Below are positions 17,434 through 56,184 of a stretch of 64,000 nucleotides of DNA, piece by piece. The notes under the pieces were generated by a model that was not told the origin of the DNA, ran no database searches, and worked only from the letters and a program-made list of their open reading frames with translations. The position numbers and the translations under genes are program-made. This DNA comes from Terriglobia bacterium (GTDB lineage: Bacteria; Acidobacteriota; Terriglobia; 20CM-2-55-15): positions 768,001 to 832,000 of the forward strand of contig CBDAOY010000006.1 in assembly GCA_965198225.1 (NCBI GenBank), given 5' to 3'. Every line of letters begins with the position of its first letter. Position 1 is the first letter of the stretch.

Positions 17434-19080
17434 ATGTGGAGAGCCGGTTTTGCGGCTACCGTCTTGGTTTGTGGTCACGCCTTCTTCTGTATGTCGCATT
17501 TGTTCGCTCAAGACACCTCGTCCGACGACATCGAGCTCAGAAGAGCCGCACTGGAAGGGGAGGTCCCTCTCACCCTGCGCCGATCTATCGAACTGGCGCT
17601 CGAGAACAATCCCGAACTTGTCGTCGAAAAGCTGAGGGTCGAACAGGCGCGGGCGGGAGTCCAGGAGGAGAAAGGCTTCTACGATCCGGTGTTCGACATA
17701 TCCGGTCTGGTCGGTCGCCGGGACAACGTCGTCGCAAGCCGGTTTTTCCCGACCGGGCTCTACGTGGAACAGGACGCGATATACGGAGCTCGCCTGAATG
17801 GAATTACGCATATGGGCTCCCGGTACGGCGTGGACATCAACTTCCATCGGCAACACTCGACATCGAATACACAATCCCTGAGTCCTCAATTCGCGGCGAC
17901 TCTGGGTCTGACATTCAGCCAGCCCCTCTTCAGGGATTCCGGCTCCGAGGTCGTCCTGACGCGGTTACGGGTCGCCGAGAGACAGCAGGAAATCTCTGAA
18001 GAAGACCTCGCAGTCGGGGTCTCCAACGTGATCTTCCAGGTGGTCCAGGCCTACTGGAACCTTGTTTTTCTGAGGGAGGATCTGGAGGTCCGAAGAACGA
18101 GCCTCGCGTTGGCCGAAGCGCTGCGCGAGCAGAATGAGAATCTTTTCAGCGCGGGACAGGTGCGTTCGGTCAGCCTGCATGAGGCGCGGGCGGGGGTCTT
18201 CGAGCGCGAGGAAGATGTCATCCGCTTCGAAAACGAGGTCGCAAGAGCGCAGGACCTGCTCAAGGTGCTGCTCTACGCGGATCTCTCGACGGTTACCTTG
18301 ATCCCGGGCGACGCATTGGACGACGTAACGGTCGACCTGGACCCACAACGCAGTTACGACCTCGCTGCGAGTGCGAGGCCCGAGCTTCTCCGGCTTCAGA
18401 GGGAGATCGAACTACGGGGCCATGAAAAGAATTTCGCGACCAACCAGGTCCGCCCACGCCTCGACTTGAACGTGCAATACGGCATGACCGGCCTCTCGGG
18501 AAGGCCCAACCGGACGCTCGTGAATCCCGGTTCTCCCGAGCTCGGCACCGCGGGCGACACGGTCGCCGGCTCTGTTTTTGCGGGGATCACGCGGCCGCTT
18601 GGCGCGTTCAACAGCTTCTTTACAGGGGACGGTTTCGACTACTGGAACGTCGAGCTGAGGCTGGAGCTCCCCCTCCGGAACCGGACGGCGGAAGCGCGGC
18701 TTGCCGACGCCAACCTTCGTCTGCGGGAGAGCGAGGTCACACTCGCGGCTCTTCGGGAGCGGGTCGTGCTGCAAGTCCGGGACGCCATTCGGAACATCGA
18801 GACCGCCGGACAGAGCGTCGATGCGGCCCGTGAGGCGGTCCGGTTCGTGGAAGAGCAGCTGTTGGCCACCCGGGTTCAGTTCGCGGCGGGCCTGACGACG
18901 AGCTATGAAGTCCTCCGAGTGCTGGACACTCTGGCCCAGGCCCGACGGCGCGAGCTGAGGGGGTTGATGGATCACAACATTGCTCGTGCTGCTCTGAGGG
19001 CAGCGGAAGGCACCATGCTGGATTACTACAACATCGAGGTCCGCGGATCCTCGCTTGCGGCTGATGAGGGATCGTTTTGA
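17434..19080 (+). CDS. TolC-family outer-membrane efflux protein
   Basis: Signal peptide; LTLRRSIELALENNPEL, FSQPLFRD, QAYWNL, RPRLDL, LELPLRNR, QFAAGLTTSYEVL. Confidence 0.9.
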   Translation: MWRAGFAATVLVCGHAFFCMSHLFAQDTSSDDIELRRAALEGEVPLTLRRSIELALENNPELVVEKLRVEQARAGVQEEKGFYDPVFDISGLVGRRDNVVASRFFPTGLYVEQDAIYGARLNGITHMGSRYGVDINFHRQHSTSNTQSLSPQFAATLGLTFSQPLFRDSGSEVVLTRLRVAERQQEISEEDLAVGVSNVIFQVVQAYWNLVFLREDLEVRRTSLALAEALREQNENLFSAGQVRSVSLHEARAGVFEREEDVIRFENEVARAQDLLKVLLYADLSTVTLIPGDALDDVTVDLDPQRSYDLAASARPELLRLQREIELRGHEKNFATNQVRPRLDLNVQYGMTGLSGRPNRTLVNPGSPELGTAGDTVAGSVFAGITRPLGAFNSFFTGDGFDYWNVELRLELPLRNRTAEARLADANLRLRESEVTLAALRERVVLQVRDAIRNIETAGQSVDAAREAVRFVEEQLLATRVQFAAGLTTSYEVLRVLDTLAQARRRELRGLMDHNIARAALRAAEGTMLDYYNIEVRGSSLAADEGSF

Positions 19081-19898: not shown

Positions 19899-20155
19899 GC
19901 AGGGCCCTTAGGGCTTCGTTTTCAGTCGGCGTAAGTGTATGATTCAAGATCAGAAAGAGCAAGTCGCGGACGAGGACAATTGGGCCCGCGGCACTCAGAG
20001 CTGGGTAAGAAACCCTTGACGAGCTGTGGGCGTCAACGCTCCCTCCGTTTCCCGGGATAAGGACTCCCCGATCAGAATCTCCAGCACAGATGACCGGGAC
20101 TGCGTTCCGGCGCGTTCCGACAGGATGGATCCCTGTCGGCGCGGTGGTTGTGGGC

Positions 20156-22018
20156 ATGGAATACAGAGAGACGTACCGCGAATCCGAGACGCGCAACCTG
20201 ATCGAGGAGCTGGAACAACTGCGCCGTTTCGACGGACCTCCAGCGGAGTTCTGGCCGTCTTTTCTGGAAAAAGCAGGCCTCTTGGTCGCGGCGAGACTTG
20301 CGCTTCTACTGGCACCGGGCGATGACGATACTTCCTGGAAGCATCTCGGCCTCTGGCCCGACAGGAGCCGCGGCCTGATCAAGGTTCCCGAACTCGCAAT
20401 CCGGATCGAGGAAGTAGCCCGCGAATCACTCGCCGAACGCTCCGCGTGGACCACAAACGGGCAACTTCCCGCCGCCCTTGGCGCCGCTTCGCTGGTCGGG
20501 GTGCGCCTCGGCGTGGACGAAGGCCGCTACGCCGTGGCGGTGGTCCTCCTGGCGGATGCGTCCGAGACGCGCGCCGAGGAGGCAAGTGTCCGTCTGAATC
20601 TCATCGCCGACACACCGAGTGTGTACCAGCTCGGCCGCCTCCTAGGTCAGGCCAAGGAGGACGTCGGGAAATTCAGCGACGGTCTGGACCTGCTGGTCCT
20701 GCTCAATGAGAAAAAGAGATATGTCGCCGCCGCGATGACCTTCGCGAATGAGGTCGCGTCCAGGTACCGATGCGATCGGGTCTCGTTGGGATGGCTGAAG
20801 GGCGGTTACGTTCGGATCCAGGCCATCAGCCACATCGAGCGGTTCGAGAAAAAGATGGACGTCGTCCAGGACCTCGAGTCCGTGATGGAGGAGTCGCTGG
20901 ACCAGGACGAGGAGATCCTCTGGCCGAGGCCGGCCGAAAGCACGGCGATCACCCGCAACCATGAATCGTTCTCCAAGAGGGAGGGCTCGGGCAACCTCGT
21001 GTCGCTCCCGATCCGGCTCGACGACGCGCCGATCGGCGTGTTGACTTGCGAACGATCACGCGAGCCGTTTTCCGAATCCGCCGTTCGAAGTCTGCGATTG
21101 TTGTGTGATCTGGCAGCGCGCCGCCTCGGCGACCTGAAGGACCACGACCGCTGGGTCGGAGCCAGGATGGCCGCCGCGGCGCGCGAAGGCGCCGCCCGCC
21201 TTGTCGGCGTGGAACACACTTTCGCCAAGCTCGCCGGCATCCTCGTTGCCGGACTTCTTGCCTTCGGCATTTTTGGACGGCTGGACTACCGGGTAGAAGC
21301 TCCGTTCGTACTCAAGTCTGACGACGTCGCTTACTTGTCGGCGCCCTTCGACGGCTACATCGATCAGGTGCTCGTGGATGTCGGCGACTTCGTGGAGCCG
21401 GGAGATCTGCTCCTCAGCTTCGACACGCGCGAATTCCTTCTTGAAGAAGCAACCGCGATCGCCAATCAGATTCGCTTCGAGAGGGAAGAGGAAAGAGCCC
21501 GGGCCGAACGGGCGGTCGCGGACATGATGGTCGCCGAGGCGCTGGCCGATCAGGCCGGGGCGCAGTTGGGCCTGGTCCGGCACTATCTGGGGCAGTCCGA
21601 GGTCCGGGCGGCGTTCAGCGGCATCGTCGTCGAAGGCGACCTCAAGGAATTGCGCGGCACCCCCTCCCGAAAGGGCGACGTGTTGTTCAAAATCGCGCGC
21701 ACGGAGAACCTTTACGCCGAGCTGGAGATTGACGAGAGAGATGCCCACGAGGTGTCCGATTCGGCGAGCGGCGAGGTCAGCTTCTTGAGCCGGCCGGACC
21801 TCACATTCCCAATAACGGTAGAGCGCACCGATCCCGTCGCAGTGACCGAGGACGAACAGAACGTGTTCATCGCCCGCGCCGATTTCACCCTCGAAGCGGC
21901 CCCCTGGTGGCGGCCGGGAATGAGCGGGGTTGCCAAGGTCGATATCGGGAGGCGCAACGTGCTTTGGATATTGACGCACCGGACGATCGACTTCCTCCGC
22001 ATCTTCTTCTGGTGGTAA
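20156..22018 (+). CDS. GAF-domain-containing HlyD-type membrane-fusion protein no. 2
   Basis: GAF-like CDRVSLGW...MEESLDQDEEI...VSLPIRL...IGVLTCER; one TM; LSAPFDGYI..V.V..GD.V..G; WRPGMSGVAKV. Start may be 20090. Confidence 0.85.
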   Translation: MEYRETYRESETRNLIEELEQLRRFDGPPAEFWPSFLEKAGLLVAARLALLLAPGDDDTSWKHLGLWPDRSRGLIKVPELAIRIEEVARESLAERSAWTTNGQLPAALGAASLVGVRLGVDEGRYAVAVVLLADASETRAEEASVRLNLIADTPSVYQLGRLLGQAKEDVGKFSDGLDLLVLLNEKKRYVAAAMTFANEVASRYRCDRVSLGWLKGGYVRIQAISHIERFEKKMDVVQDLESVMEESLDQDEEILWPRPAESTAITRNHESFSKREGSGNLVSLPIRLDDAPIGVLTCERSREPFSESAVRSLRLLCDLAARRLGDLKDHDRWVGARMAAAAREGAARLVGVEHTFAKLAGILVAGLLAFGIFGRLDYRVEAPFVLKSDDVAYLSAPFDGYIDQVLVDVGDFVEPGDLLLSFDTREFLLEEATAIANQIRFEREEERARAERAVADMMVAEALADQAGAQLGLVRHYLGQSEVRAAFSGIVVEGDLKELRGTPSRKGDVLFKIARTENLYAELEIDERDAHEVSDSASGEVSFLSRPDLTFPITVERTDPVAVTEDEQNVFIARADFTLEAAPWWRPGMSGVAKVDIGRRNVLWILTHRTIDFLRIFFWW

Positions 22019-22024
22019 CCGGAC

Positions 22025-26166: not shown

Positions 26167-26173
26167 AAACCCT

Positions 26174-26355
26174 GAAGGTCCGGTCTACGACCGCACACTG
26201 TTCTGGTCAAGGATGGCGTGGGGGGACCGGACCAACTGTCTTTCTCCGCGAACCCACGCACTGCAATTCGGTCCGTGAACGTTCAGTCTTTCGTCGTGAG
26301 GGGGACGGTGGGCCCGACGCTAATAGATGGTTCCGCTCATAGAGCGCAACTACAC
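26174..26355. repeat. Degenerate inverted REP pair after the SecA gene
   Basis: GAAGGTCCGGTCTACGACCGCAC (26174-26196) and TTCCGCTCATAGAGCGCAACTACAC (26331-26355). Confidence 0.6.
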
Positions 26356-27277: not shown

Positions 27278-27281
27278 CAAA

Positions 27282-49000: not shown

Positions 49001-52000
49001 ACGGGATCACGGTCGCGGACGGGAACAACATCGTGGTCGGCGATGAGGGCTTCATCCAGTACCAGGATCAGGGCCAGACCGGCGGAGCCTCGGTGCTGGG
49101 CGAGGTGTCGAGCCTGTTCCTGGATGCCGCGGGAACATTTGTCCAGGGCGGGATCGACACGATTACGGTCGGTGCGAGCGCGGGGAGCACCGGAGCGGGC
49201 AGCGACACCGTGATCGCCGGGCTGGGTGACGACGACGTCACGATCGGCGACGGCGACAACATCGTATTCGGCGACGAAGGCGGGATCACGTACCAGACGG
49301 GCAGCGGCCTGCGGGACCTGATCACGAGCCGGTATCTGGATGCGGCCGGGTTTGCGGCCCTGGATGCACCGGAAGCCGTGGTCGGCAACGACACGATCAC
49401 GACCGGCGTGGGTGATGACCTGATCATCGCCGGCCTGGGTGACGACGGGATCACGGTTGCGGACGGAAACAACATCGTTCTAGGCGATGAAGGGTTCGTC
49501 CAGTACCAGGATCAGGGCCAGACCGGCGGAGCTTCAGTGCTCGGCGAGGTGTCGAGCCTGTTCCTGGATGGCGCCGGTACCTTTGTTCAGGGTGGCATCG
49601 ACACGATCAGCGTGGGCGTCGGCGCCAACACCGGTGACGACGTCGTCATCGCCGGCCTGGGTGACGACGTCATCACCATCGGCAACGGGAACAACATCGC
49701 CCTGGGCGATGAAGGCAGGATTCTCTACCAGACCGGTAGCGGCCTGCGGGGTTGGATCGAGAGCAAGTATCTGGACAACGTGGCCGGGATCCCCGCTCGG
49801 TCGCCACACGACGCCCCAGAAGCCGAGGTCGGTGACGACATGATCACCACGGGCGTGGGCGATGACGTGGTCATCGGTGGTCTGGGCGACGACATGATCA
49901 ACGTGTCGGATGGTGAGAACATCGTCCTCGGCGACGAGGGCGAGGTCCACTACCAGGATCAGTCGACAAACCTCGGCGAAATCACCACGCGGTTTACCGA
50001 CGGCACCGGCAGTTTCGTCCAGGGCGGCGACGACACGATCACCTCGGGCGACGGGCGCGACTATATTCTGTCCGGCTCCGGTAGCGATATGGTGACCTCC
50101 GGAGAGGGCGATGATGTGGTCCTCGGTGACGGCCTGATCCTGTTCCATCCGGGAACGAATGTTCCCGCGACTGTTGCTACTCTGTGGCAGGACGACAACC
50201 TCGTCCTTCTGCCTCCCAGCGACTCCGACATCTTCGCCGGAGGCGGCGATGACATCGTGCTCGCCGGCTCCGGCAACGACTGGGTCGAAGGCGGTACCGA
50301 AGACGACATCCTGATCGGCGACGAAGGAGTAGTCACGTTCGATCCAGGCCGTGCTCTTGCGGGCGAAGCCGTCGCCGACTTCATCCAGACGGTGTTCTTC
50401 ACCCCCGACGGCCAGTTGATACCGGGCGGCACGGACGTCCTCCTCGGCCAGGACGGCGACGACACTGTCATCGGCGGCTCCTTCGACGATCTGCTGGACG
50501 GCGGCCCCGACCGCGACCTGGTGGTCGGCGACAACGTCACCCTCGATCGCACCGGGACGCGTCTGGGCATCAACACGAATCCGCGGTTCCGGACTCTGAC
50601 CGGCGCAGAGATCTACGATCCCCAGTTTGATGGCTTGGCAGACCTGCTGATCGACCGTGCGAACGAATACGGGGATCCGAACTGGGGAGGCGTCGCGCCG
50701 CTCTGGGGTGACTTCGTGATCACCGTCCACGACAGCAGGAGCACCTGGGACGGCGGTACCGTCCTCGTGCAGGACGGTGTCAACCGGACCTACGGGAACG
50801 AGTTCGTCGCCGGCGGTCCGCACGATGACACTATCTTCGGGCTGCGCGGTGAAGACACGATCCAGGGCGACGGCTCACTCTTCTTCGACACCCGCGAGTC
50901 GGTGACAATCGATCCGGCGAGCCTCAACCACGATCCGCTGGCGCTGCAGGCCCTGCTCGAGGGCGGCACGCCGCTCGACACGCCACAGTCGTTCGAGGCG
51001 CTCGACGACGGTGACGACTACATCGAAGGCGGCCAGGACGACGATCTGATCTTCGGCAACCTGGGTCAGGATGACATCGTCGGCGGCAGCTCCGACCTGT
51101 TCGGCCTCGACACCCAGGACCAGCGGCCGGACAGCTCCGATCTCATTTTCGGTGGCGCGGCGACGAACATTGCGAGGAATGACCTGGGTGACGCCATCCT
51201 GGTCGGCGGGCAGGTTGTGAACGACGTCAACGCCCACTCGAGAGACGCGGACACGATTCTCGGCGACAACGGCAACATCTATCGCCTCCTCGAAGGGACC
51301 GGCACCGCCTTCCTGACCTTCAGCTACGACCAGACCCCGGACGAGGACGGCAGCGACCGTGGCGATCTGAGGGTCGTCGTTCGAGGGACGGAATGGATAA
51401 CGGACAGCGTCGACGGACGCCAAGATTACACCCCGGGCGGTGCCGAATTCGACGCGGCCAATGCGCAGCACAACATCGGCGCGGCGGACGAGATCCACGG
51501 CGAAGCCGGCGACGACGCCATCCATGGCATGGTCGGCGACGATGTGCTGTTCGGCGAGGGCCAGGACGATGATCTGATCGGCGGCTACGGCCACGACTGG
51601 ATTTCCGGCGGCACGGGTCAGGATGGCGTACTGGGTGACGATGGTCGGATCTACACCAACCGCAATGACGGCCTGAGTGAAGACCTCTATGGCATTGACG
51701 GATTGGGTGATCTCGACCTGAACCTGATCATATTTACCCCAGATGGCACTCACGAAGCAGAGATCCATCGTGAGGGCGAGCTCAGGAAGACGGCGATACT
51801 GCGGCCGTTCAACGTGCAGGACAAGAGCACGTTCAACCAGGATCGATGGTATGACGCGATCAACGCCAACGACATCATCTATGGTGGATGGGGTGATGAC
51901 TTCCTGCACGGTGGCTCCGGCAACGATGGGATCAGTGGCGCGGAGGCCTTGCCGCAGTTCTATCACGCGCCGACCAATTCAGGAGACGCGCTGCAATACG

Positions 52001-55000
52001 GTGCAGGGGAATTCGCGGCTTTCGATGAATCGGATGCGCTGAGCAAAATCCAGGGCTTCTTCTTGAACTTCGATGCCAGCGAAACCTTGGACGGAGACGA
52101 TAGGATATTTGGCGATCTGGGACATGACTGGTTGGTCGGTGGTGCCGGAGAGGACAATCTGTACGGTGGTTACGGGCATGATCTGCTCAATGTGGATGAT
52201 GACCTGGCGACGAACGGTGGTGCAAACGATGTCGCCGATTCAGACCTGAATGTCGACCGCGCTTACGGTGGCGCGAGCGCAGACGTCCTGATCGGCAACA
52301 GCGACAGCGATCGCCTGATAGACTGGGTGTCCACAGGATTCGACCGCTACTTCACACCGGACTCCCTGATTCCCGAGACCATCACCGACGAGGGATACTG
52401 GCGCCTTTACTTCTTCTTGTATGATCTGTCCGAATCAGATGGCGCCGACCCGGCCCGGCATGAAATCGCCGGTGCTATTGCGAAGCACAATGGTGAGCCT
52501 GAAGGTGAAACGGGGCTTGTTCGGTATCCGACGGTGTCCAGCACTGCGACCATGGAAAATCCCGCCTTGCCCGGAGACACGGTACACATTGATGGCTTCT
52601 TCGCGGATGTCGCTCTGTCAGACATCGCAGCGCCATTGATCGGAACGGTGGACTGGGGTGACGGCAATATCGAGAATGTGGTGCTCGTGGGCAGGGCGTT
52701 CTACGCTGCGCACCAGTACGATGCCGGCGGTATCTACGAGGTGGTGGTGACCATCGTCAACGATGATACGGGAGCGCCGACGGCCCATACCACCGCTGTG
52801 GTAACCGGGGCAAGCGTTCACGATGGCGTCCTCCATGTGGTGGGCACGAATCGCGACGACCAGATTCAGCTGTCGGCGGATGGTCCTCAGCAGATCAAGC
52901 TCCAGGCAGACTTCCTGTCGGAAGACAAAATCTTCTCTACCGCAGGTGTGAGCCGGATTGTCGTCGCTTCTCTCGCGGGCAACGACAGCATCCAGGTTTC
53001 GAACGACGAGGACATCTCCTCCTGGGTCGATGGCGGCGACGGTCATGACCAGATTCAGGTCGATCAAGGAGACAATGTCATCTTCGGCGGGAAGGGTCAG
53101 GACCAGCTACAGGCCGCAAATGGTGACGATATCCTGGTGGGCGGTCTGGGCTCCGACGATGTAGATGGCAACGATGGCAACGACATCTTGATCGGTGGCG
53201 CCACAATGTTCGGCGTCAACGGGCCCGATTTCATGAACCTGGATAGCCAGGAACAAGTGGTACCGGTCAGCGGAACAACCCTGTTCGGGCTCGACCGAGA
53301 GATCTGGGAAACCATTCAAGCTGAATGGCTGCAAGGTATTGTGACCCTGTTGAACGAACACAGGGTGATCGATGATTCGGTCCATGATTCTTTAGACGGA
53401 CAAAGTGGAAGCGACTTGATTTTCGCCAATAGCGAAGACAGTCATGATGCCGGGGCAGGAGATGAATTAATAACTGCAAGTGAATGGACTGTCGAGAGTG
53501 GCCACTACAGCGCTACCCCGATATTGGGTGTGCACACAGTCCATGTACTGCCGCAAGACGTAGTGCCGCGGGACAGCTTGTCGATCAACGCGGCAATCAA
53601 CACAACGCATACCGGTGGCATCATCTTCGATGTGCACAGCGAAGACGATTTCAAATTCGCGGTGTTGTCCGTCGCAAACGACGAGGTGTGGGTCGGTCAT
53701 TATTCCGTGCATCAAGGGTGGCGCGTAGGGGCAATTGCCTCGTTCGAGGGTGACATCGACCGTTTCTATCAACTGTCGGTCAAAACGGAAAATGAAACGT
53801 TGCCGTTCAAAACGGAAAATGCAACGGTCCGTGTGTTTGTCGATGGTCAGGAGACGGTAAGCTATACATTCAGCGGGCAGGTCATCGACGGAGATTTTGG
53901 GCTGATCAGCCGTCAAGGAACGAGTGTTTTTGAGCTTTTGACATTCTTGAGCGATGCCACAGACCATATCCGAATCGTCACCAGTGCAACCATGGAAGAC
54001 AAAGTGTTGCCTGGCGAGACTGTCCATGTCGACGGCGTGTTCCTGGTCGATGGCCTGGTCGGCGGGTTCATCGATTGGGGCGATGGAGTCATCGAAGAGT
54101 TGCTCATTTCCGGCACGACGTTCCACGCGGAACATGCCTACAGCCATGGGGCTGTCTTCGATGTGCAGGCCACGCTCATCAACGAGGATGGGGAAACAAT
54201 AACGGCGAGTGCGGTCGCTGTGGTGACGGGTTCGGGCGTCAACAGAGGAGTTCTCCACGTCGTAGGTACGAACCAAGCCGACTCCATTCAGATCTCATCT
54301 GACGGACCTAACAGAGTCAAGCTACAGGCAGATTTCATATCGGGTGATCGTATTTACTCCATCGAAGGGATAGGTCAGATTTCCATCGTTACGACGGATG
54401 GGAATGATCAGGTGCAAGTGAATATTGACCAGGCCATTCCCTTCATGGTTGATGCAGGCGATGGTGACGACCAGATCAATGTCGACCAGGGAGACGGTCT
54501 TGTTTTCGGCGGCGCGGGTGACGATCAAATCACAACGAAGGATGGTCGGGATCTGTTGATAGGCGGCCTTGGCAGCGATAATCTGACCAGCGGCAAGGGC
54601 GAAGATATCGTGATCGGCGGGACGACCATGTATGGCACGGACAGGGCTATCTGGGAAGCGATCAGAGCGGAGTGGGTGAGAGACGATCTGAATTACTCCG
54701 AACGCGTCGAGCATATTCGCAACGGCGGTGGTCTGAACGGCGCGTATGTGCTCAACGAACTGAGGGTGATCAATGATTCCTCTGACGATTCCATGGATGC
54801 CAAGGAAGAAAAGGATCTGTTCTTCAACAACAACGGCGATTCTGATGACAGAAACAGCAATGAAACACGGATCCGTGACAGTGAGTGGAAGATCGATGGC
54901 AACCGTTACGAGGGGACACCGATACTCGGTGATCAGACTGCAAACGTCCTGCGCGAGATCGTGCCGGCGCAAACCTGGCAGAGGATAAGTGCGACCATCA

Positions 55001-56184
55001 GTACCGATCACTCGGGCGGCATCATGTTCGATGTACACGGTGAAGACAACTTCAGGTTCGTCGTGTTGTCGGCCGAGGACAATGAATTACAGATAGGGCG
55101 CTATTCAGCACTCCAGGGTTGGACCCTAGATCTGGCTACCGAGTTCACGGTCAACAGCGGTGTAGACTACGAGCTAACCGTGTTCCTGAACGATTCGGAC
55201 GTAAGTGTCGCGGTCAACGGGCAGGAAGTCGTGGTCGCTACGTTGAGCTCGATCGTCATCGACGGTGGTTATGGATTGGTCAGTCGTCTCGGGACCAGCG
55301 AGTTCGATGTCATCGCGGTAGCCAGCGATGAGCTCAGCATCGGCGGGAGCGGGGGCGGCTCAGGGGGTGGGGGTGAGGATCCGCCTTCAGGAGGAGACCA
55401 GCAGGCGCCCGCGGTCACCGTGACCTCCGCGAATGGCGGGGAGAACTGGGAGGCGGGATCCACACAGAATATCACCTGGACGGCCACCGACGACGTCGGG
55501 GTGGCGTCGGTGGACATCTATTATTCCACCAACGGAGCTAGCGGTTCGTTCAGCCCGATCGCGTTGGGTGAGGCCAACGACGGGGTCTTCAGCTGGACAG
55601 TGCCCGGCAATCCGACAACGGACGGGTTCATTCGGGTGGTGGCGCACGATGCGGCTGGCAATTCCGGAGAAGACCTGTCGGATCAGGTATTTACGATCAG
55701 CGGTCCGCCGGCTCAAACGCAAACGGTGAGCCTCGAAGTCACCGACGGTTGGGACGAGAAGAATGGGAAGACCCTGGTGGAGGACGGCAAACTGGGTCTC
55801 GTTCAGACCAGTAATAACAACCGGATTGAAGTGGAATCCGGTTTCTACACATCCTTCCAATTCGAGGGCATTGTGCCGGCCGGTGCCACAATCCTGTCGG
55901 TGGTGGTCTATGCCGAGCATTGGGAAGAGAGCGGTATGTCCCAGTCCGATCCAATCCTTTGGGAACTCGGTACCGGAAACCTGGAGAATCCGAACGTTTT
56001 GTCCTCGATGAATCCGGGCCTGTTCATTAACGAAAACAACGAGGGAACGACGTCGTGGGACGTGACGGCCTCGATGGATACAGCGGCGAAGGTGAACGAC
56101 CTTAAGTTCGTCATTCAGAACAACGACCCGGCCGGCAAGAAGACTTTCATAGACCGTGTCTACGTGGAAGTCACCTATGCCTGA
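37078..56184 (+). CDS. Giant protein fragment 3 (6368 aa: RTX-like GGxGxD repeats, Ig/Calx-like modules, 148-aa repeats, PKD and lectin-like domains)
   Basis: Numerous GGxGxDxI/L nonapeptides, WGDG PKD motifs, terminal Ig-like module (VTSANGGENWEAGSTQNITW). No ribosome-binding site or leader of its own. Confidence 0.85.
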   Translation: MALDVDMSMQFFSVQLRVVGAARIVKTGSTGLVLNLGATLSASAFGVSGIFDFSADLRLQLNTRGGTGSDANDLGVPRQTFRVEVTNATLTLLGFITLNGSGFVQFSQGVFSMQVSLSGNFLNLVTMSGSAFFSSEGEFEVILDGGIFLGVTGFNVSGSAHIEVSLLDSNGKSPLGTGTKVLNIAGSATASATIFFIPIGPFTIGFAYNSGTGDITISVGPVPVPGIEWVTVDLGFFGSARIPYPTITFKSFSFTIGRLKLGAPPPPPVLGFVNSGGRLTLNVGPRAVDRNLQEGEIDEGVIIEGVGPLTGGRQTIRVSMFGVTQVFNNVADIMIEDMAAGNDFVEVASSVAVPIEAHLGGGADIFNSAGSGVVTVHGDVGDDRLQGGSAADHLFGGPGSDEFTGRAGADTISGGNDGDRVNWNVGDGNDSINDTGTGGSDQVIVFGTFNPDQMTISGSGAGFTVAVGAETLVVNGVELAELDGGDGGDTFTINNLTSTLSVNLLLGAGAADTVTFNGSAGPEAFDLSTAVASRPVVVGGVPTVSNVNVFRLSELGAATVDVIDASAGDTVTLGGGGGNDVINVRSLRSGLPTTVNGGGGADTINVGTNALGTTSNPSNNSGGNLNKIAALLTVNGNGGGDTLNVDDGVDGAGNTGVLTATAITQLGMGGSITYGTVQTLTIGLGSGGDGFTIQSTHGGTTNLNTNNGADTVHVNSASGILNVVGGNGTDTFNVNATNSSSVSTLNGSGDADTFNVHAMNGQVTVNAGGGSDTVNVGSLAPGTGGNVNAIAGHLTVNGNGSADTLNVDDTGDGAGNTGQLTNTTITGLGMGGSITYGTVETLNIGLGSGGDVFTIQSTHGGTTNLNGNGGADITNIRTISGTTTVGTGAGADTINVGSNAQGNSSDPDNNAGGTLNGIDALLTITGGGSGGDRDSLTVDDTADAAANTGILTSSRLTGLGMGNPDQSVVAATLGISYSQVEDLVISLGTGADTFTINGTHNGATAGTTETTTLNTGAGTDLVHINDVSDTLVVNGEADVDTINVNGTGTGSVSTLNGDAGADIFNVRDMDGRVNVRGGADSDTVNVTDIAPTLPTGARTTQTGSIDEINALLDVDGGTGPLDVMNVDDSRAAAINDKTGTLTATTLRGLELDVGIDYLGLEELNIWLGFGDNTFDINSTHPGETTLNTAEGEDTVNVNNVSGLVTVNTEQQDDTINVRATGLGSTLRINSHEGSDTINLSDLSPTLPGAYPSTLPPAAADSIGNIDAIDGLVVIDGGTEFDTINVDDSGNATAKAGTLTLNTLRGLALPAGVDYTGAEDFNLWFGTGADVLFIDSTHAGTTQVFGGDGNATTNERDDTVAINTIGGVTTIHGQAGNDFIEVNVDAPVLPQDATFGSLDPITGFFVRTHLNGLGAVLNLHGEGDSDQYTLNLAGDGTALVNVHDDGAPNNGADILIVNGADVVAGVTNQPNDTFLLRRDFLALLNESVPGGGFDRVERVNYDQNINARLIVNGLGGDDKIVADDNSSITTLDGGDGNDTFQIGQVFGTPRDAAAGLAPGDTFNTTPVIIGVINDPVTGAVIFDPTSFDPVLDVLPAATIAAINAAIAHQAALGLALDGIAYVSDGVNNATTAFGGDGADVFNVYHNKGTLRLEGEAGNDEFIVRAFVTVDLSPQAETEILAGGGDDTINYAINAPVSLDGGAGFDTVVVLGTPFNDNFVVTRDGIFGAGLNVTFANIESAELDALEGDDTIYILGTSSDFVTRVIGGLGSDTIEVMGDVLRTIVSDDLLGRSGVITHGATSLDDDFNNVGVSGVGVNVLSLGGDSLVSIQPTGEPLRVTEAGTLASYFISLVGPNAGALAANPVYLTVSAGVASSEDRGNGGASILVSVNGGAFTNAVVLTFDGTTASTVFEIEVMAVDDLAAEGRRIALISHSINSDDAAFDDLPLIGIFVDVVDNDKAGLDIRHLQDLAGGVVPDNRTEVLEGGATFGFDDVYSVALTAAPAVGEIVTVALNTDGQVTALSSVTGNSFLVFDHTNWNTPQLVVVTAVEDGLDGIEISTVAHQITGGAVYGGTPSETLKVTVYDDETPGVIVQETDGSTIVVDGGANDSYRVRLTRMPDDVVTLTLRTDTQTLLSTIGGFATTDETGALGFFEYTYQFTAANWYQWVDIEVTANSAFTGTGEKTKAFPPQDQNLDQIGGPLTIEGGVGTGGLRALVEPVLLPNETNAVSQQNPSSTSESGDIDTLNVFHTDNSDGDTGNLFYRTVDAGGRTIANPGLALTGFEMGDDLTVDQGTPGNPQNLYYGGGITLNGFEVVEILLGKGDETLTVADTGDRDEKDPAVTDDPATITAIHGGGGSDIITITGRGNGPLVVYGDTSEDRIRYGNDAPEASVHGTSFANDGDDTIDARLMAEQNDGFVGLVAYGGFGNDTIWGSQDDDHLAGGTSSAAGHDFIDGQAGDDHIYGDSHFNVGLQLFAEDQVQAFDNADPRVADMFRVLVATSGDDNDFGSPDFRESAGADELWGGDGADIIFGDHGVISLAQGTRRLTTTASVERIETAQPTFGGDDTLYGHSNDPAGPVDDAAGDRIFGGQAADYIDAGQGNNVVLGDHGFVDLGEADSHIDRIESTQTTFAGGVDTILTGSGNDIVIGGRFGDTITVADGTNVVLGDAGFLQYQNGGPLLGEVSSIYLDGAGAFIQGGDDTISVGVGANTGDDIVIAGLGDDNVTIGNGNNVVFGDDGSVTFQTGSTLRDRIESRYLDGAGLSALDGAGAVVGNDTIITGVGNDVVIGGLGVDGITVADGNNIVAGDEGFVQYQDQGQTGGTSVLGEVSSSYLDGAGTFVQGGIDTITVGASAGSTGAGSDTVIAGLGDDDVTIGDGDNVVFGDEGGITYQTGSGLRDLITSRYLDAAGFAALDAVEAVVGNDTISTGIGNDVIIGGLGDDGITVADGNNIVAGDEGFVQYQDQGQTGGASVLGEVSSQYLDAAGTFVQGGIDTITVGASAGSTGAGSDTVIAGLGDDNVTIGDGDNIVFGDDGGITYQTGSGLRDLITSRYLDAAGFAALDALEAAVGNDTINTGVGNDVIIAGLGVDGITVADGNNIVVGDEGFIQYQDQGQTGGTSVLGEVSSSYLDLAGTFVQGGIDTITVGASVGSTGAGSDTVIAGLGDDNVTIGDGDNVVFGDEGGITYQTGSGLRDLITSRYLDAAGFAALDAVEAVVGNDTISTGIGNDVIIGGLGVDGITVADGNNIVVGDEGFIQYQDQGDTGGTSVLGEVSSSYLDGAGTFVQGGIDTITVGASAGSTGAGSDTVIAGLGDDDVTIGDGDNIVFGDEGGVTYQTGSGLRDLITSRYLDAAGFAALDALEAAVGNDTISTGVGNDVIIGGLGVDGITVADGNNIVVGDEGFIQYQDQGQTGGASVLGEVSSLFLDAAGTFVQGGIDTITVGASAGSTGAGSDTVIAGLGDDNVTIGDGDNIVLGDDGTITYQTSSGLRDRIESRYLDLAGFAALDAPEAVVGNDTITTGVGDDLIIAGLGDDGITVEDGNNIVLGDEGFVQYQDQGQTGGASVLGEVSSLFLDGAGTFVQGGIDTISVGVGANTGDDVVIAGLGDDNVTIGDGDNVVFGDEGRITYQTGSGLRSRIESQYLDAAGLSPLDAPEAAVGDDTIITGVGNDVIIGGLGVDGITVADGNNIVVGDEGFVQYQDQGQTGGTSVLGEVSSSYLDGAGTFVQGGIDTITVGASVGSIGAGSDTVIAGLGDDNVTIGDGDNVVFGDEGGITYQTGSGLRDLITSRYLDAAGFAALDAVEAVVGNDTISTGIGNDVIIAGLGVDGITVADGNNIVVGDEGFIQYQDQSQTGGTSVLGEVSSLFLDAAGTFVQGGIDTITVGASAGSAGAGSDTVIAGLGDDDVTIGDGDNVVFGDEGGITYQTGSGLRDLITSRYLDAAGFAALDALEAAVGNDTIRTGVGNDVIIAGLGVDGITVADGNNIVVGDEGFIQYQDQGQTGGASVLGEVSSLFLDAAGTFVQGGIDTITVGASAGSTGAGSDTVIAGLGDDDVTIGDGDNIVFGDEGGITYQTGSGLRDLITSRYLDAAGFAALDAPEAVVGNDTITTGVGDDLIIAGLGDDGITVADGNNIVLGDEGFVQYQDQGQTGGASVLGEVSSLFLDGAGTFVQGGIDTISVGVGANTGDDVVIAGLGDDVITIGNGNNIALGDEGRILYQTGSGLRGWIESKYLDNVAGIPARSPHDAPEAEVGDDMITTGVGDDVVIGGLGDDMINVSDGENIVLGDEGEVHYQDQSTNLGEITTRFTDGTGSFVQGGDDTITSGDGRDYILSGSGSDMVTSGEGDDVVLGDGLILFHPGTNVPATVATLWQDDNLVLLPPSDSDIFAGGGDDIVLAGSGNDWVEGGTEDDILIGDEGVVTFDPGRALAGEAVADFIQTVFFTPDGQLIPGGTDVLLGQDGDDTVIGGSFDDLLDGGPDRDLVVGDNVTLDRTGTRLGINTNPRFRTLTGAEIYDPQFDGLADLLIDRANEYGDPNWGGVAPLWGDFVITVHDSRSTWDGGTVLVQDGVNRTYGNEFVAGGPHDDTIFGLRGEDTIQGDGSLFFDTRESVTIDPASLNHDPLALQALLEGGTPLDTPQSFEALDDGDDYIEGGQDDDLIFGNLGQDDIVGGSSDLFGLDTQDQRPDSSDLIFGGAATNIARNDLGDAILVGGQVVNDVNAHSRDADTILGDNGNIYRLLEGTGTAFLTFSYDQTPDEDGSDRGDLRVVVRGTEWITDSVDGRQDYTPGGAEFDAANAQHNIGAADEIHGEAGDDAIHGMVGDDVLFGEGQDDDLIGGYGHDWISGGTGQDGVLGDDGRIYTNRNDGLSEDLYGIDGLGDLDLNLIIFTPDGTHEAEIHREGELRKTAILRPFNVQDKSTFNQDRWYDAINANDIIYGGWGDDFLHGGSGNDGISGAEALPQFYHAPTNSGDALQYGAGEFAAFDESDALSKIQGFFLNFDASETLDGDDRIFGDLGHDWLVGGAGEDNLYGGYGHDLLNVDDDLATNGGANDVADSDLNVDRAYGGASADVLIGNSDSDRLIDWVSTGFDRYFTPDSLIPETITDEGYWRLYFFLYDLSESDGADPARHEIAGAIAKHNGEPEGETGLVRYPTVSSTATMENPALPGDTVHIDGFFADVALSDIAAPLIGTVDWGDGNIENVVLVGRAFYAAHQYDAGGIYEVVVTIVNDDTGAPTAHTTAVVTGASVHDGVLHVVGTNRDDQIQLSADGPQQIKLQADFLSEDKIFSTAGVSRIVVASLAGNDSIQVSNDEDISSWVDGGDGHDQIQVDQGDNVIFGGKGQDQLQAANGDDILVGGLGSDDVDGNDGNDILIGGATMFGVNGPDFMNLDSQEQVVPVSGTTLFGLDREIWETIQAEWLQGIVTLLNEHRVIDDSVHDSLDGQSGSDLIFANSEDSHDAGAGDELITASEWTVESGHYSATPILGVHTVHVLPQDVVPRDSLSINAAINTTHTGGIIFDVHSEDDFKFAVLSVANDEVWVGHYSVHQGWRVGAIASFEGDIDRFYQLSVKTENETLPFKTENATVRVFVDGQETVSYTFSGQVIDGDFGLISRQGTSVFELLTFLSDATDHIRIVTSATMEDKVLPGETVHVDGVFLVDGLVGGFIDWGDGVIEELLISGTTFHAEHAYSHGAVFDVQATLINEDGETITASAVAVVTGSGVNRGVLHVVGTNQADSIQISSDGPNRVKLQADFISGDRIYSIEGIGQISIVTTDGNDQVQVNIDQAIPFMVDAGDGDDQINVDQGDGLVFGGAGDDQITTKDGRDLLIGGLGSDNLTSGKGEDIVIGGTTMYGTDRAIWEAIRAEWVRDDLNYSERVEHIRNGGGLNGAYVLNELRVINDSSDDSMDAKEEKDLFFNNNGDSDDRNSNETRIRDSEWKIDGNRYEGTPILGDQTANVLREIVPAQTWQRISATISTDHSGGIMFDVHGEDNFRFVVLSAEDNELQIGRYSALQGWTLDLATEFTVNSGVDYELTVFLNDSDVSVAVNGQEVVVATLSSIVIDGGYGLVSRLGTSEFDVIAVASDELSIGGSGGGSGGGGEDPPSGGDQQAPAVTVTSANGGENWEAGSTQNITWTATDDVGVASVDIYYSTNGASGSFSPIALGEANDGVFSWTVPGNPTTDGFIRVVAHDAAGNSGEDLSDQVFTISGPPAQTQTVSLEVTDGWDEKNGKTLVEDGKLGLVQTSNNNRIEVESGFYTSFQFEGIVPAGATILSVVVYAEHWEESGMSQSDPILWELGTGNLENPNVLSSMNPGLFINENNEGTTSWDVTASMDTAAKVNDLKFVIQNNDPAGKKTFIDRVYVEVTYA
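45050..50050 (+). repeat. Intragenic tandem repeat C: ~11 units of 444 bp (148 aa), Ca-binding type
   Basis: QYQDQ anchors at 45514, 45958, 46402, 46846, 47290, 47734, 48169, 48613, 49057, 49501, plus degenerate flanking units. Confidence 0.92.

Follow-up and report, generated by a model that had tools for sequence, protein, structure and literature searches.

To our knowledge, ABC-driven type I secretion is the sole well-studied route for giant adhesins, and the export of bacterial proteins that are 5,000 to 20,000 residues long is not well understood. The accessory SecA2 of mycobacteria is thought to hand its substrates to the ordinary SecYEG, and PqqD-like recognition domains bind the leaders of ribosomal peptides.

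Closest to the locus described here is the 'secondary SecA_DEAD' conserved genomic module, delineated computationally by Kamneva, Poudel and Ward (2015; PMC4452313). As given in the main text of that paper, the module comprises a secondary SecA_DEAD protein, Peptidase_M50+HlyD, GAF+HlyD and HlyD/biotin_lipoyl proteins and sometimes OEP, and it holds no ABC gene. Section 17 offers a model in which SecA is the ATPase, M50 forms the inner-membrane passage, and HlyD and OEP make up the conduit; this model is already in print and is not new here. No substrate is given in the main text, from which cargo, PqqD, RTX and giant are absent as words and in which 'substrate' is used once, in a general sense; the supplement may list large neighbours. 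The first-pass annotation of the present locus had cited this paper for Planctomycetes, Verrucomicrobia, Proteobacteria, Nitrospirae as well as Chlorobi; the paper exists, and its main text reports the module in those phyla. No follow-up of the module was found in the literature from 2016 onwards among the matches listed, as judged by title and abstract. Searches on LEPR-XLL, on DUF4347 and on SecA with HlyD, M50 and GAF gave nothing on the system, and SecA_DEAD with HlyD gave Kamneva et al. (2015) only. Added here to that work are the link to LEPR-XLL proteins, the fold of the recognition domain, the tandem GAF and a measure of how far the SecA is truncated.

Gene content of the module and its second SecA

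The window analysed is a stretch of 64,000 nucleotides from a Terriglobia bacterium (assembly GCA_965198225.1, contig CBDAOY010000006.1, positions 768,001 to 832,000). Its ORF list places the genes for TolC, an adaptor, a GAF-adaptor, an M50 fusion and SecA co-oriented on the plus strand at 17434-26166. The arrangement corresponds to the Kamneva module, with a second SecA_DEAD protein apart from the housekeeping SecA and with M50+HlyD, GAF+HlyD, HlyD/biotin_lipoyl and OEP neighbours.

17434..19080, plus strand: TolC-family outer-membrane channel, 548 aa (Pfam OEP, 157.6 bits in two stretches)
19077..19898, plus strand: short periplasmic adaptor (membrane fusion protein), 273 aa (HlyD_D23 84, HlyD_3 64.7 and Biotin_lipoyl_2 35.8 bits)
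20090..22018, plus strand: GAF-adaptor with tandem-GAF sensor, one membrane helix and adaptor domain, 642 aa (Pfam GAF at 216-346, HlyD_3 at 505-610)
22025..24178, plus strand: RRE-M50-adaptor fusion, 717 aa (Peptidase_M50, PF02163, 33.1 bits, cut-off 27.2)
24130..26166, plus strand: truncated second SecA (SecA2), 678 aa (SecA_DEAD 304, SecA_PP_bind 93 and P-loop_SecA 197 bits)
26435..26911, minus strand: ORF of 158 aa between the SecA2 and candidate cargo genes (DUF6941, 26.6 bits, just under the cut-off of 27)

The component calls made at first pass, namely TolC, short adaptor, GAF-adaptor, PqqD-M50-adaptor and a 678-aa SecA, are upheld by Pfam and, for PqqD, by orthologues and fold. The genes had also been described as partly overlapping, as is evident from the 4-nt overlap of the TolC and short-adaptor genes and the 49-nt overlap of the M50-fusion and SecA2 genes. 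The TolC-family protein displays a signal-like hydrophobic N-terminal segment (residues 6-24, from hydropathy), and the related loci closest to this one have TolC-like matches upstream of the module as well. The HlyD and OEP Pfam domains are clear in the module, while the type I subfamily models remain below their cut-offs: the TolC-family protein scores 97.1 bits with TIGR01844 (type_I_sec_TolC, cut-off 225.15), and module adaptors score 56.1 and 29.4 with TIGR01843 (type_I_hlyD, cut-off 208.65). The short adaptor exceeds the cut-off of TIGR01730 (RND_mfp; 128.5 against 94.9 bits). The minus-strand ORF of 158 aa has no tblastn match across 80 related loci and is probably not part of the export system. 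Genes for DUF1570 and sulfatase proteins are also present in the window. A scan of positions 12800-27400 recorded one promoter-like site where 2.3 were expected and 17 terminator-like sites where 11.6 ± 3.0 were, neither result being usable.

SecA2 retains the motor domains and the preprotein cross-linking domain and is devoid of the wing/scaffold end and the C-terminal zinc tail; the Pfam wing-and-scaffold family of SecA has no match in it. Its alignment with the 888-aa SecA of the same genome covers residues 38-648 of the latter at 39% identity, the last 240 residues being missing from SecA2, and its alignment with Bacillus subtilis SecA chains of 802-841 residues covers their residues 35-606. 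The absent C-terminal part is what we take to hold the wing domain, the finger entering SecY, and the lipid- and SecB-binding tail. The GEGK, DE.D and GRGTD motifs are unchanged in all 26 SecA2 sequences compared. The genome displays two SecA_DEAD matches, in open frames of 959 and 722 aa, and SecA2 is the second of them. In the SecA phylogeny that had been proposed as a check against the housekeeping copy, a branch with a support of 100 sets the six housekeeping SecAs apart; the tree was built in quick search mode, the row G413_short (a mis-extracted frame with a branch length of 9.3) was disregarded, and L079 sits on a very long branch. The SecA2 equivalog models are not reached, the scores against cut-offs being 500.8 and 930 for TIGR03714, 450.2 and 725 for TIGR04221, 512.5 and 1085 for TIGR04397, and 401.4 and 1100 for NF012136. 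The chances are slightly in favour of SecA2 being the translocation motor, and evenly balanced on whether the route bypasses SecYEG.

That no ABC or RND pump gene lies in the window, as first noted, agrees with the present analysis. ABC and RND families are absent from the 27 flanking ORFs of at least 150 aa at E ≤ 1e-5, and a scan of the window for Walker-A and ABC-signature motifs revealed no ABC gene. The scarcity holds in the related loci: 1 of 80 has an ABC-like ORF, where the density in the genome itself would predict ∼8.6. Of the 11 top-scoring ABC exporter ORFs of the genome, not one passes the HlyB (725), LssB (693) or PrtD (510) cut-off, the top PrtD score being 226.5, and no adaptor of the genome reaches the type_I_hlyD cut-off. 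The genome does have other ABC exporters: one passes the cut-off of the NHLP-bacteriocin type, and another, of C39-type, is split and lies beside a weak adaptor.

The LEPR-XLL gene and its distribution

Downstream of SecA2, a single gene of ∼29 kb starting with LEPRILL had been described. The LEPRILL start is substantiated by the match of the N-terminus to NCBIfam NF012209 (30.8 bits as protein and 36.2 bits in the genome scan, cut-off 17), whereas the single gene is not, as three frames are present in the assembly.

27282..31526, plus strand: candidate cargo gene, frame 1, 1414 aa, with a basic stretch and then LEPR-XLL (DNA 27315-27377; NF012209)
29678..36143, plus strand: two tandem-repeat arrays in the candidate cargo gene, 357 nt x 9.7 and 384 nt x 7.7
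31568..37024, plus strand: frame 2, 1818 aa from the first start codon, open from 30791 (ORF list)
∼36919..37024, no strand assigned: MITE of 106 bp with inverted repeats, the inverted ends read directly
37078..56184, plus strand: frame 3, 6368 aa, open from 36991 (RTX repeats, 444-nt x 9.9 array)

The motif LEPRILL (27330-27350) lies 16-22 residues from a TTG start, and this is the sole NF012209 match in the genome, 1.1 kb past SecA2. The leader could be aligned with 17 others from several phyla. It is without a hydrophobic core, as its hydropathy maximum over 19 residues is 1.22 as compared to at least 1.5 for the membrane helices of the module. With frame 3 divided into thirds, HemolysinCabind scores 42.5, 107.6 and 137.5 bits, which indicates RTX calcium-binding repeats; weak PKD_4 and Big_7 matches in the same frame are below their cut-offs.

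The first break lies in the first array, where the repeat unit 31384-31724 measures 341 nt as compared to 357 nt in its neighbours, with a 16-nt gap near 31486. Public contigs of the runs X1, X2 and X5, which come from three studies, have loose ends at 31440 and show no indel here; their coverage of the repeats is fragmentary, so this break may be either a genuine deletion or a fault of the assembly. The second break is due to the MITE, which shifts the reading frame and brings in a stop codon; its ends recur genome-wide in pairs ∼118 bp or ∼1.55 kb apart. Contigs of the same three runs are without the MITE, 36919 being joined to 37021 with 101 nt skipped, and frames 2 and 3 are in register once it is taken out. 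Since the gene is interrupted twice in the assembly, the strain may not make the full protein.

The distribution of LEPR-XLL proteins was followed in two phylum-wide samples. Among the 401 genomes of the own-phylum sample, seven carry the module: six with strong M50-fusion orthologues, and G372, in which the SecA2 end and a LEPR-XLL start share one small contig. Credible LEPR-XLL proteins are found in 6 of these 7 genomes and in 0 of the other 394. The only hits among these 394, weak ones in G176, G304 and G396 (E 0.002-0.007), were judged spurious, being partial model matches in arginine-rich, wrong-frame-like translations. The second sample consists of 251 genomes around G423, which was picked as the centre because it has the system. 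M50-fusion orthologues occur in 21 of them, and these 21 are also the ones that carry SecA2 orthologues; the copy numbers of the two agree. LEPR-XLL is present in 20 genomes, 19 of them within the 21 module genomes (18/20 when G423 is left out of the overlap), and in none of the 14 genomes with paralogues only; the LEPR start lies on the same contig within ∼30 kb in 11 of the 19. A hit in G675, again a partial model match, was judged spurious.

In other phyla, LEPR-XLL was found in 28/40 and 28/40 of the genomes behind the best 80 related loci (55 of 79 distinct genomes), and in 0 of 14 control genomes. tblastn on the plus strand of the 80 loci gave 79 matches for M50-HlyD, 68 for GAF-HlyD and 60 for SecA2. 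A verified LEPR-XLL start is co-oriented directly downstream of the module in 11 of the 80, of which only 53 have at least 1.5 kb of room and 27 stop less than 1.5 kb past the final gene of the module; in 13 further loci, a giant RTX-type gene ends just upstream. For these starts, a short motif served as prefilter and candidates were verified by NCBIfam; the strict motif scan missed true starts (L041, L065), and counts from it alone are too low. In L087, a locus from an Omnitrophota MAG, the module is followed by a LEPR-XLL frame of more than 3,000 aa, while in G444 and G442 SecA2 is unlinked from the module yet lies beside LEPR-XLL genes. GGDEF-EAL genes come after the cargo gene in L076 and L095, and the L076 cargo carries cadherin-like domains. 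The module is 52-66% identical to copies in other phyla as compared to 34-37% within its own phylum, and it looks horizontally transferred from these identities.

LEPR-XLL was not found in 24 of the 79 module genomes, 2 of the 21 in the second phylum and 1 of the 7 in the own phylum; this may reflect incompleteness, as most are fragmented MAGs. Owing to the kinship among genomes of one phylum, the counts make the cases look more independent than they are. The neighbourhood survey, set beforehand as a check on conserved linkage, indicates that module and LEPR-XLL co-occur across phyla and that ABC genes are rare, and the LEPR-XLL protein, first proposed as the likely cargo, is linked to the module in both phylum-wide samples and in 79 further genomes. 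Judged by this distribution, LEPR-XLL proteins are in high probability clients of the module. The cargo link is well supported, and the mechanism is what we infer; every link comes from gene neighbourhood, co-occurrence or fold.

G441, the record of L076, holds the module and a LEPR-XLL gene but a single SecA_DEAD match, which suggests that SecA2 may be dispensable or replaced by the ordinary SecA. A genome that seems to do with one SecA would suit a two-step path, in which SecA2 passes the LEPR-XLL protein to the ordinary SecYEG, M50 acts as leader peptidase, and the adaptors and TolC take over from the periplasm; the presence of an ordinary SecA in the window's genome and the nature of SecA2, a true SecA homologue with a preprotein cross-linking domain, point the same way. 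Such a path is nevertheless unlikely. The leader has no hydrophobic core (1.22 against at least 1.5), and the 240 residues missing from SecA2 include, by the domain maps of SecA, the part with the SecY finger and the lipid/SecB tail. Moreover, three adaptor domains fused to cytoplasmic or membrane parts look like a one-step envelope-spanning machine, and an RTX protein of ∼9,700 residues in the periplasm is hard to imagine.

The M50 fusion and the tandem-GAF adaptor

The M50 fusion is laid out as a PqqD-like RRE (∼17-105), an M50 membrane domain (∼140-445) and an adaptor domain with an alpha-hairpin (∼447-700), and its predicted structure has a pLDDT of 87.8. The recognition-domain model displays strands 26-32, 35-42 and 47-51, then helices 53-59, 68-78 and 86-98, the order of three strands and three helices of the PqqD-like RRE fold. 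It matches the lasso RRE 6jx3_B (B1 solved with leader; Z 9.2, rmsd 3.0, 84/85 aligned) and the lasso B1 5v1u_A, also solved with leader (Z 8.7, 83/84 aligned). PqqD (PF05402) matches 62 of 73 orthologue N-domains with a best E of 2.7e-8, and the top solved match of the N-domain profile is PqqD 3g2b (E 0.016). The window's protein alone is sub-threshold with PF05402 (12.3 bits, cut-off 23.4, E 0.22); the PqqD label stands despite this score because of the orthologue matches and the fold.

The protease domain has the site-2-protease motifs HEFGH (210-214) and NPLLRFDGYY (306-315), of which H210, E211, H214, N306, P307, L308 and D312 are unchanged in all 73 M50-fusion sequences, and its fold matches Aquifex RseP 9j83_A (Z 9.1, 164 aligned, model 194-389). 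The adaptor domain matches MacA, MexA and EmrA at Z ∼14 (14.4), and the HlyD-type chain 8dck_C matches a module adaptor with an E of 2e-8. The Foldseek 'pdb' search with the whole 717-residue model gave adaptor matches only; the recognition and protease matches come from the wide VIA search. By analogy with the leader-bound lasso structures, the recognition domain could, with odds a little on its side, bind the LEPR-XLL leader; that M50 cleaves this leader is a half-and-half proposition.

The best NCBIfam models for the fusion are both sub-cut-off, namely the daptide intramembrane metalloprotease NF041824 (178 bits over residues 21-405, cut-off 300) and the epipeptide protease NF058609 (31.6 bits). 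As a recognition domain with M50 is typical of ribosomal-peptide pathways and the module looks horizontally transferred, the exported product might be a small leader-bearing peptide or a small molecule, with the LEPR-XLL association being indirect, for example through a common mobile island. This is very improbable in view of a co-occurrence that extends across several phyla and gene orders, with the cargo downstream, upstream or divergent, and that persists where SecA2 is unlinked from the rest. LEPR-XLL, further, goes only with the orthologous clade, as evident from the 14 paralogue-only genomes without it.

The GAF-adaptor model has a mean pLDDT of 82.1. Its tandem GAF matches PDE5A 3mf0_A (Z 16.9, 298 aligned, model 31-362, rmsd 11), a single GAF matches 3trc_A (Z 16.7, rmsd 3.0, model 189-354), and the adaptor domain matches EmrA 4tko_B (Z 15.8, model 397-620); hydrophobicity peaks at residues 374-392. 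A tandem-GAF domain suggests ligand control, and regulated cleavage is what site-2 proteases are chiefly known for. The set might then serve control and not transport: the recognition domain and M50 would cut an N-terminal tag, releasing or retaining a surface adhesin under tandem-GAF control, with export by another route, a logic comparable to that of LapG/LapD acting on LapA. The GGDEF-EAL genes behind the cargo gene in L076 and L095 and the adhesin-like cargo, RTX here and cadherin-like in L076, fit this account. It is quite unlikely all the same, since it accounts neither for a SecA-type motor that is strictly paired with the M50 fusion (both in 21 of 251 genomes, and in the same ones) nor for the three adaptor domains and TolC, and since the genome holds no classical type I ABC or HlyD over cut-off. 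The recognition and adaptor domains, from the topology of the model, are also predicted to lie on opposite sides of the membrane.

Proposed route and comparison with known systems

The reading we favour, and regard as reasonably probable, is leader-guided, SecA2-powered, ABC-less export via an adaptor-TolC duct, with the LEPR-XLL giants as dedicated clients. The cargo N-terminus, a basic stretch and then LEPR-XLL, would be bound by the cytoplasmic PqqD-like domain of the M50 fusion. The leader would be held at the site-2-protease domain, whose invariant catalytic motifs are the observed part, and would probably be clipped there. SecA2 would thread the chain from N to C; here the observed part is the retention of motor and preprotein clamp with the loss of the C-terminal part. 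The chain would exit in one step through a duct made of the three adaptor domains docked to TolC, and the RTX repeats would fold extracellularly. The tandem-GAF domain may gate the machine on a small cytoplasmic ligand. RTX repeats are a hallmark of classical ABC-type substrates with a C-terminal signal, and the genome holds other ABC exporters; both points run counter to this reading, together with the two breaks in the candidate cargo gene and the lone SecA_DEAD match of G441.

More tentatively, and with chances somewhat below even, the module may represent a distinct envelope-spanning secretion class. In such a class, a truncated SecA would stand in place of the type I ABC transporter, the RRE-M50-adaptor would read and remove a non-hydrophobic LEPR-XLL leader, and a tandem GAF of cyclic-nucleotide type would act as gate. 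Export of proteins of ∼1,600 to ∼20,000 residues would proceed from N to C, and the system would have spread horizontally between phyla together with its clients. The orphan module of 2015 is assigned a family of clients marked by a short, conserved tag at the N-terminus, along with a plausible tag-reading domain, which makes it directly testable. If confirmed, it would present a SecA motor acting outside the SecYEG context and a recognition domain of peptide natural products reused in protein targeting. It would also provide a simple sequence rule for surface-exposed giants in Verrucomicrobiota, Planctomycetota, Nitrospira, Desulfobacterota and many Proteobacteria.

With the classical type I systems (HlyB-HlyD-TolC, PrtDEF and Lap), the module shares, at the level of Pfam domains and folds, a TolC-family channel and adaptors of lipoyl, beta-barrel and alpha-hairpin build, and its candidate substrates are likewise very large and RTX-rich. 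It differs in having a SecA-like ATPase instead of an ABC transporter, and in a conserved tag that is N-terminal, whereas the classical signal is C-terminal. There are three distinct adaptor-domain proteins here, of which two have a cytoplasmic sensor or recognition domain fused on, and threading would run from N to C if SecA2 works as SecA does.

Lasso B1/B2, EpeP, the daptide protease and the peptidase-containing ABC transporters likewise use an N-terminal leader and a dedicated reader domain coupled or fused to protease and exporter. According to a passage of one review (PMC10885120), cleavage of the peptide and its export are both thought to be the work of the M50 protease EpeP. The clients here, in contrast, measure thousands to ∼20,000 residues, and the energy source is not an ABC domain. 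The accessory SecA2 of Gram-positive bacteria and mycobacteria is also a second, shorter SecA for a few special substrates; its counterpart here is partnered with adaptors, TolC and M50, and no SecY2/Asp genes were seen in the window.

In passages of the preprint of West-Roberts et al. (2023), SecA_DEAD embedded in giant Omnitrophota proteins is proposed to aid their export. Common to both cases, as far as those passages go, is a SecA motor with a preprotein-binding domain, devoid of scaffold and wing and tied to giant proteins. In Omnitrophota, however, the SecA resides inside the giant protein, with type II secretion-like genes near, whereas here it is a separate 678-aa operon protein. As compared to these systems, what appears new from the genomes surveyed is that LEPR-XLL giant proteins track the secondary SecA_DEAD module across phyla.

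Gene content of the module and structure of the probable cargo gene

ORF calling in the window revealed five closely spaced module genes on the + strand (17434 to 26166), followed by a very long cargo coding region that begins at 27282 and, in this assembly, is divided into three frames.

17434-19080, + strand: TolC-family protein (Pfam OEP, 157.6 bits)
19077-19898, + strand: 273-aa adaptor (HlyD_D23, HlyD_3, Biotin_lipoyl_2), overlapping the TolC gene by 4 nt
20090-22018, + strand: 642-aa GAF-adaptor
22025-24178, + strand: 717-aa M50-adaptor fusion
24130-26166, + strand: 678-aa short second SecA (SecA2), overlapping the fusion gene by 49 nt
between the SecA and cargo genes, minus strand: 158-aa ORF (DUF6941, 26.6 bits, cut-off 27)
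27282-31526, + strand: first cargo frame
31568-37024, + strand: second cargo frame
37078-56184, + strand: third cargo frame

Residues 12-32 of the cargo match the LEPR-XLL family (NCBIfam NF012209) with 30.8 bits against a cut-off of 17. The first-pass annotation had described this gene set, with no ABC or RND gene in the window, beside a single cargo ORF of ~29 kb; the gene set and the absence of ABC and RND genes are borne out by ORF and family searches and by a motif scan, whereas the single ORF is not. Upstream of the TolC gene, and on the module strand, lie genes for a TonB_C/DUF1570 protein (13044-14687) and for a TonB-dependent receptor with a carboxypeptidase-regulatory-like N-domain (14912-17413), the latter ending 20 nt before the TolC gene. 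A radical SAM gene (56666-57727) on the cargo strand starts ~480 nt past the last cargo frame.

Counted between stop codons, the second cargo frame opens at 30791 and the third at 36991. The first break sits in a 357-nt tandem array, in which the unit 31384-31724 (341 nt) shows a 16-nt gap near 31486 relative to both adjacent repeat units and the frame is shifted; this deficit reflects either a genuine loss of sequence or misassembly of the repeats. The second break is caused by a 106-bp element, located at about 36919-37024, whose inverted ends are perfect. Its 21-26-bp ends recur at dozens of sites of the window's own genome (G000), paired ~118 bp or ~1.55 kb apart (for example contig C8:43497-43614 and contig C6:628312-629859), a spacing that points to a miniature derivative and its parental insertion sequence, members of an active IS family. 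Of the sampled words of 36200-37700, 84-91% are present in six public sequencing runs from three studies, which may include the sample behind the window's own assembly. Contigs from one run per study (X1, X2 and X5; 5762, 1614 and 4852 nt, respectively) join 36919 directly to 37021, skipping 101 nt. Once these 101 nt are deleted, frames two and three run in register, so that the allele without the element reads through the site as one ORF; the insertion at 36919-37024 is thus recent or strain-specific. RTX calcium-binding repeats abound in the third frame (HemolysinCabind; 42.5, 107.6 and 137.5 bits in its three thirds).

The cargo leader and the two fusion proteins

In an alignment of 18 cargo N-termini, a basic stretch precedes the conserved core E-x-L-E-P-R-x-L-L-S-A-D, with E, R and one L invariant among these leaders. 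The leader reaches a hydropathy maximum of 1.22 over 19 residues and lacks a hydrophobic core, which sets it apart from an ordinary Sec signal peptide.

The model of the M50 fusion, built from 73 sequences (mean pLDDT 87.8, pTM 0.69), comprises three parts. Residues 17-105 form three strands and three helices, which resemble lasso-peptide B1 proteins with bound leader (6jx3_B, Z 9.2, rmsd 3.0, 84/85 residues; 5v1u_A, Z 8.7, 83/84 residues). PqqD (PF05402) matches 62 of the 73 orthologue N-domains with a best E of 2.7e-8, the window protein itself reaching only E 0.22, and the best solved match of the N-domain profile is PqqD 3g2b (E 0.016), covered over the whole chain. These structural matches support a predicted leader-recognition domain on the M50 fusion, an addition of the present analysis. 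Residues 194-389 align with Aquifex RseP (Z 9.1, 164 residues), and the HExxH and NPLL..D motifs are invariant in 73/73 sequences. Residues ~445-705 are modelled as a full adaptor with a two-helix hairpin (Foldseek 4l8j, MexA, MacA and AcrA, down to E 2.4e-12; VIA Z 14.4), and the profile of the fusion matches the HlyD-type chain 8dck_C (2e-8). Among named families, the intramembrane proteases for daptides and epipeptides come nearest, each with a score under its cut-off; the M50 protease EpeP is thought to both cleave and export its peptide, according to the available text of a review (PMC10885120). One of the main rival explanations is a regulatory cleavage role without translocation, which would leave the strict pairing with SecA2 and the presence of three adaptor domains and TolC unexplained.

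The model of the GAF fusion (pLDDT 82.1) was built from only 10 sequences. Its tandem GAF (~31-362) resembles those of PDE5A (Z 16.9), PDE2A (Z 16.9) and a cyanobacterial adenylyl cyclase (Z 14.1), with high rmsd due to a differing domain angle; a single membrane helix and an adaptor resembling EmrA (Z 15.8) follow. This tandem-GAF sensor is likewise added here. The last ~40 residues form a strongly conserved tryptophan-rich tail, WWRPGMSG...WILTHRT.DFLR...WW (alignment A5), modelled as a final helix (624-641), which could be a second membrane or partner contact. An adenylate/guanylate cyclase gene (10982-12784, minus strand) lies 4.6 kb upstream of the module, the tandem GAF of which is of the cyclic-nucleotide type, and a PAS-GGDEF-EAL gene directly follows the LEPR-XLL gene in two gammaproteobacterial loci (L076:19417-22107 and L095:18676-21813). 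Second-messenger control of the module is possible.

SecA2 and the search for an ABC partner

SecA2 aligns to residues 38-648 of the 888-aa SecA of its own genome, which holds two SecA_DEAD genes, and to residues 35-606 of B. subtilis SecA; a Pfam search reported no wing-and-scaffold family for it. By SecA domain maps, the missing part includes the helical wing domain, the two-helix finger entering SecY and the zinc-binding tail. Another main rival is that the cargo is delivered to SecYEG and then handed over in the periplasm, against which the truncation and the non-hydrophobic leader count. The GEGK, DE.D and GRGTD motifs are invariant in 26/26 SecA2 sequences, which makes an active ATPase probable in SecA2.

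A quick tree sets the six housekeeping SecAs apart from the rest by a branch with support 100. A few of the 80 related loci (those around the best relatives of the M50 fusion) lack SecA2 although they have room downstream. Five such genomes were searched, four of which encode a second short SecA elsewhere (frames of 660-676 aa); the tree places the unlinked short SecAs of three genomes (G442, G443 and G444) among the SecA2s. In G444 a LEPR-XLL start lies about 2 kb after the short SecA gene, and in G442 the short SecA lies a few kb beyond the end of a 7818-aa LEPR-XLL frame. The genome of locus L076 (G441) has a single SecA_DEAD match despite carrying the module and a LEPR-XLL gene; it is the only finding that speaks against SecA2 being obligatory.

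None of the 27 other window ORFs of at least 150 aa matched an ABC or RND protein (E<=1e-5). A scan for Walker-A plus ABC signature found none in the window but picked up 44 ORFs genome-wide; applied to related loci totalling 1.25 Mb, it gave one ABC-like ORF (in locus L041), as against about 8.6 expected from the density in the window's genome. Profile searches of that genome gave bests of 226.5 for PrtD-type (cut-off 510) and 57.5 for type_I_hlyD (cut-off 208.65), and none of its 11 best ABC exporter ORFs passed the HlyB, LssB or PrtD cut-offs. An ABC partner encoded elsewhere in the genome is a possibility to which nothing points. The genome does encode an NHLP-bacteriocin export ABC transporter (TIGR03797, 920 bits vs 709; C5:655000-661000, locus L111). 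Also present is a C39-type exporter whose peptidase/membrane part and ATPase part seem to be separated, with a weak HlyD-like gene as the third piece (C5:288000-296000, locus L112).

Linkage of the module to LEPR-XLL giant proteins and a proposed export route

The M50 fusion, SecA2 and LEPR-XLL proteins are tightly coupled in genomes. The linkage of module genes with LEPR-XLL genes that the first-pass annotation had asked for was found in 6/7 module genomes of the own phylum, in 19/21 of a second phylum and in 55/79 distinct genomes of a wider set.

The window's genome (6.4 Mb, 9 contigs, 97% complete) has exactly one LEPR-XLL match, beside the module. In a sample of 401 own-phylum genomes, full-length M50-fusion orthologues (E below 1e-120, 34-37% identity) occur in G000, G215, G194, G152, G094 and G174, the remaining matches being paralogues of 23-34% identity. 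LEPR-XLL at E below 2e-4 occurs in G000, G152, G215, G194, G174 and G372, so that credible matches are confined to module genomes (0/394 others). On a small contig of G372, the seventh module genome, the SecA2 gene ends and LEPR-XLL starts 1.1 kb further, as in the window; in G152, an unpublished genome counted among the seven, a giant G3-like gene ends just upstream of the module on the same contig, and the conclusion for the phylum holds without this genome. Three weaker matches (E 0.002-0.007) were judged spurious, being arginine-rich frames without leader context.

The second sample comprised 251 genomes centred on G423 (record title Verrucomicrobia bacterium IMCC26134). Of these genomes, 21 carry M50 orthologues (E<=2e-114) and 14 have paralogues alone. 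The identical 21 genomes contain SecA2 orthologues (E<=1e-135) with matching copy numbers, adjoining the M50 gene in 20. LEPR-XLL was found in 20/251 genomes, the twentieth (G675) being a weak partial match outside the module genomes; since G423 was chosen as system-bearing, the overlap without it is 18/20. The LEPR start lies within about 30 kb of the M50 gene on the same contig in 11/19, downstream, upstream or divergent. M50-adaptor paralogues are common and do not accompany LEPR-XLL (0/14 paralogue-only genomes). The window's genome also holds such a paralogue (C9:378886-380427, locus L007; 25% identical, 901-aa frame), without SecA.

A scan with one genome per species confirmed at least 582 relatives of the M50 fusion; the best 80 of these derive from Verrucomicrobiota, Thermodesulfobacteriota, Planctomycetota, Nitrospira, many Proteobacteria, Omnitrophota and others, and include the culturable Marinobacterium rhizophilum DSM 18822, Amphritea sp. 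HPY and Pseudomaricurvus alkylphenolicus KCTC 32386. The genomes behind them, mostly fragmented MAGs, carry LEPR-XLL in 28/40 and 28/40, as compared to 0/14 control genomes. Within the 80 loci, of which only 53 offer at least 1.5 kb of downstream sequence, 22 motif candidates were checked by NCBIfam: 11 were verified, all on the module strand just downstream of the module, and 11 failed, including all 7 minus-strand ones. Another 13 loci carry a co-oriented relative of the RTX part of the window's cargo just upstream of the module, its gene start lying beyond the fetched flank. The replicated cross-phylum link of the module to LEPR-XLL giant proteins is added here. That the module exports some other molecule is a main rival, against which the recurrence of the link in several phyla and gene orders stands.

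The longest LEPR-bearing frames reach 20,466 aa. In Marinobacter (L076:13566-18713) and Amphritea (L095:13733-18655), a DUF4347 domain (E 1e-57 and 1e-50) comes directly after the LEPR-XLL leader, with cadherin-like or Ig-like repeats next; this N-terminal combination of LEPR-XLL and DUF4347 may be common among the clients. An Omnitrophota MAG locus (L087, 12642-22100) carries GAF and M50 fusions followed by a LEPR-XLL frame of >3153 aa without Pfam match, a short SecA being located elsewhere in the genome. The available text of West-Roberts et al. (2023) describes SecA_DEAD and preprotein-binding domains, without scaffold and wing, inside giant Omnitrophota proteins and suggests an export role; this locus may connect the module with such proteins.

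The module is of a known, uncharacterised kind. Kamneva, Poudel and Ward (2015; PMC4452313), correctly cited in the first-pass annotation, report in their main text a conserved neighbourhood of Peptidase_M50/HlyD, GAF/HlyD, HlyD/biotin_lipoyl and sometimes OEP genes without an ABC transporter, and suggest that the SecA_DEAD protein supplies the ATPase and the M50 protein the membrane passage, so that the core model had already been published. Methylobacterium extorquens AM1 is among the carriers they list. The words cargo, PqqD, RTX and giant are absent from that main text, and 'substrate' occurs once, in a general sentence. Literature searches found no later work on the module and no paper tying LEPR-XLL or DUF4347 proteins to it. 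Among the best 80 relatives, copies in Verrucomicrobiota, Thermodesulfobacteriota and other phyla share 52-66% identity with the window module, as against 34-37% for own-phylum copies; in the quick tree the window's SecA2 falls together with Desulfuromonas and Desulforapulum sequences (support 99), apart from same-phylum ones. Horizontal transfer of the module is likely, as also proposed in the main text of PMC4452313.

As a hypothesis of export that is now easily testable, the recognition domain would bind the leader in the cytoplasm and the protease domain would clip it, while SecA2 would thread the chain from N to C into a passage formed by the membrane parts of both fusions. The three adaptor domains and TolC would then carry the chain out in one step, with the tandem GAF gating the process. 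Such a route would follow a logic like that of bacteriocin exporters that contain a peptidase, except that SecA rather than an ABC protein would supply the power and the client would be a thousand-fold larger.
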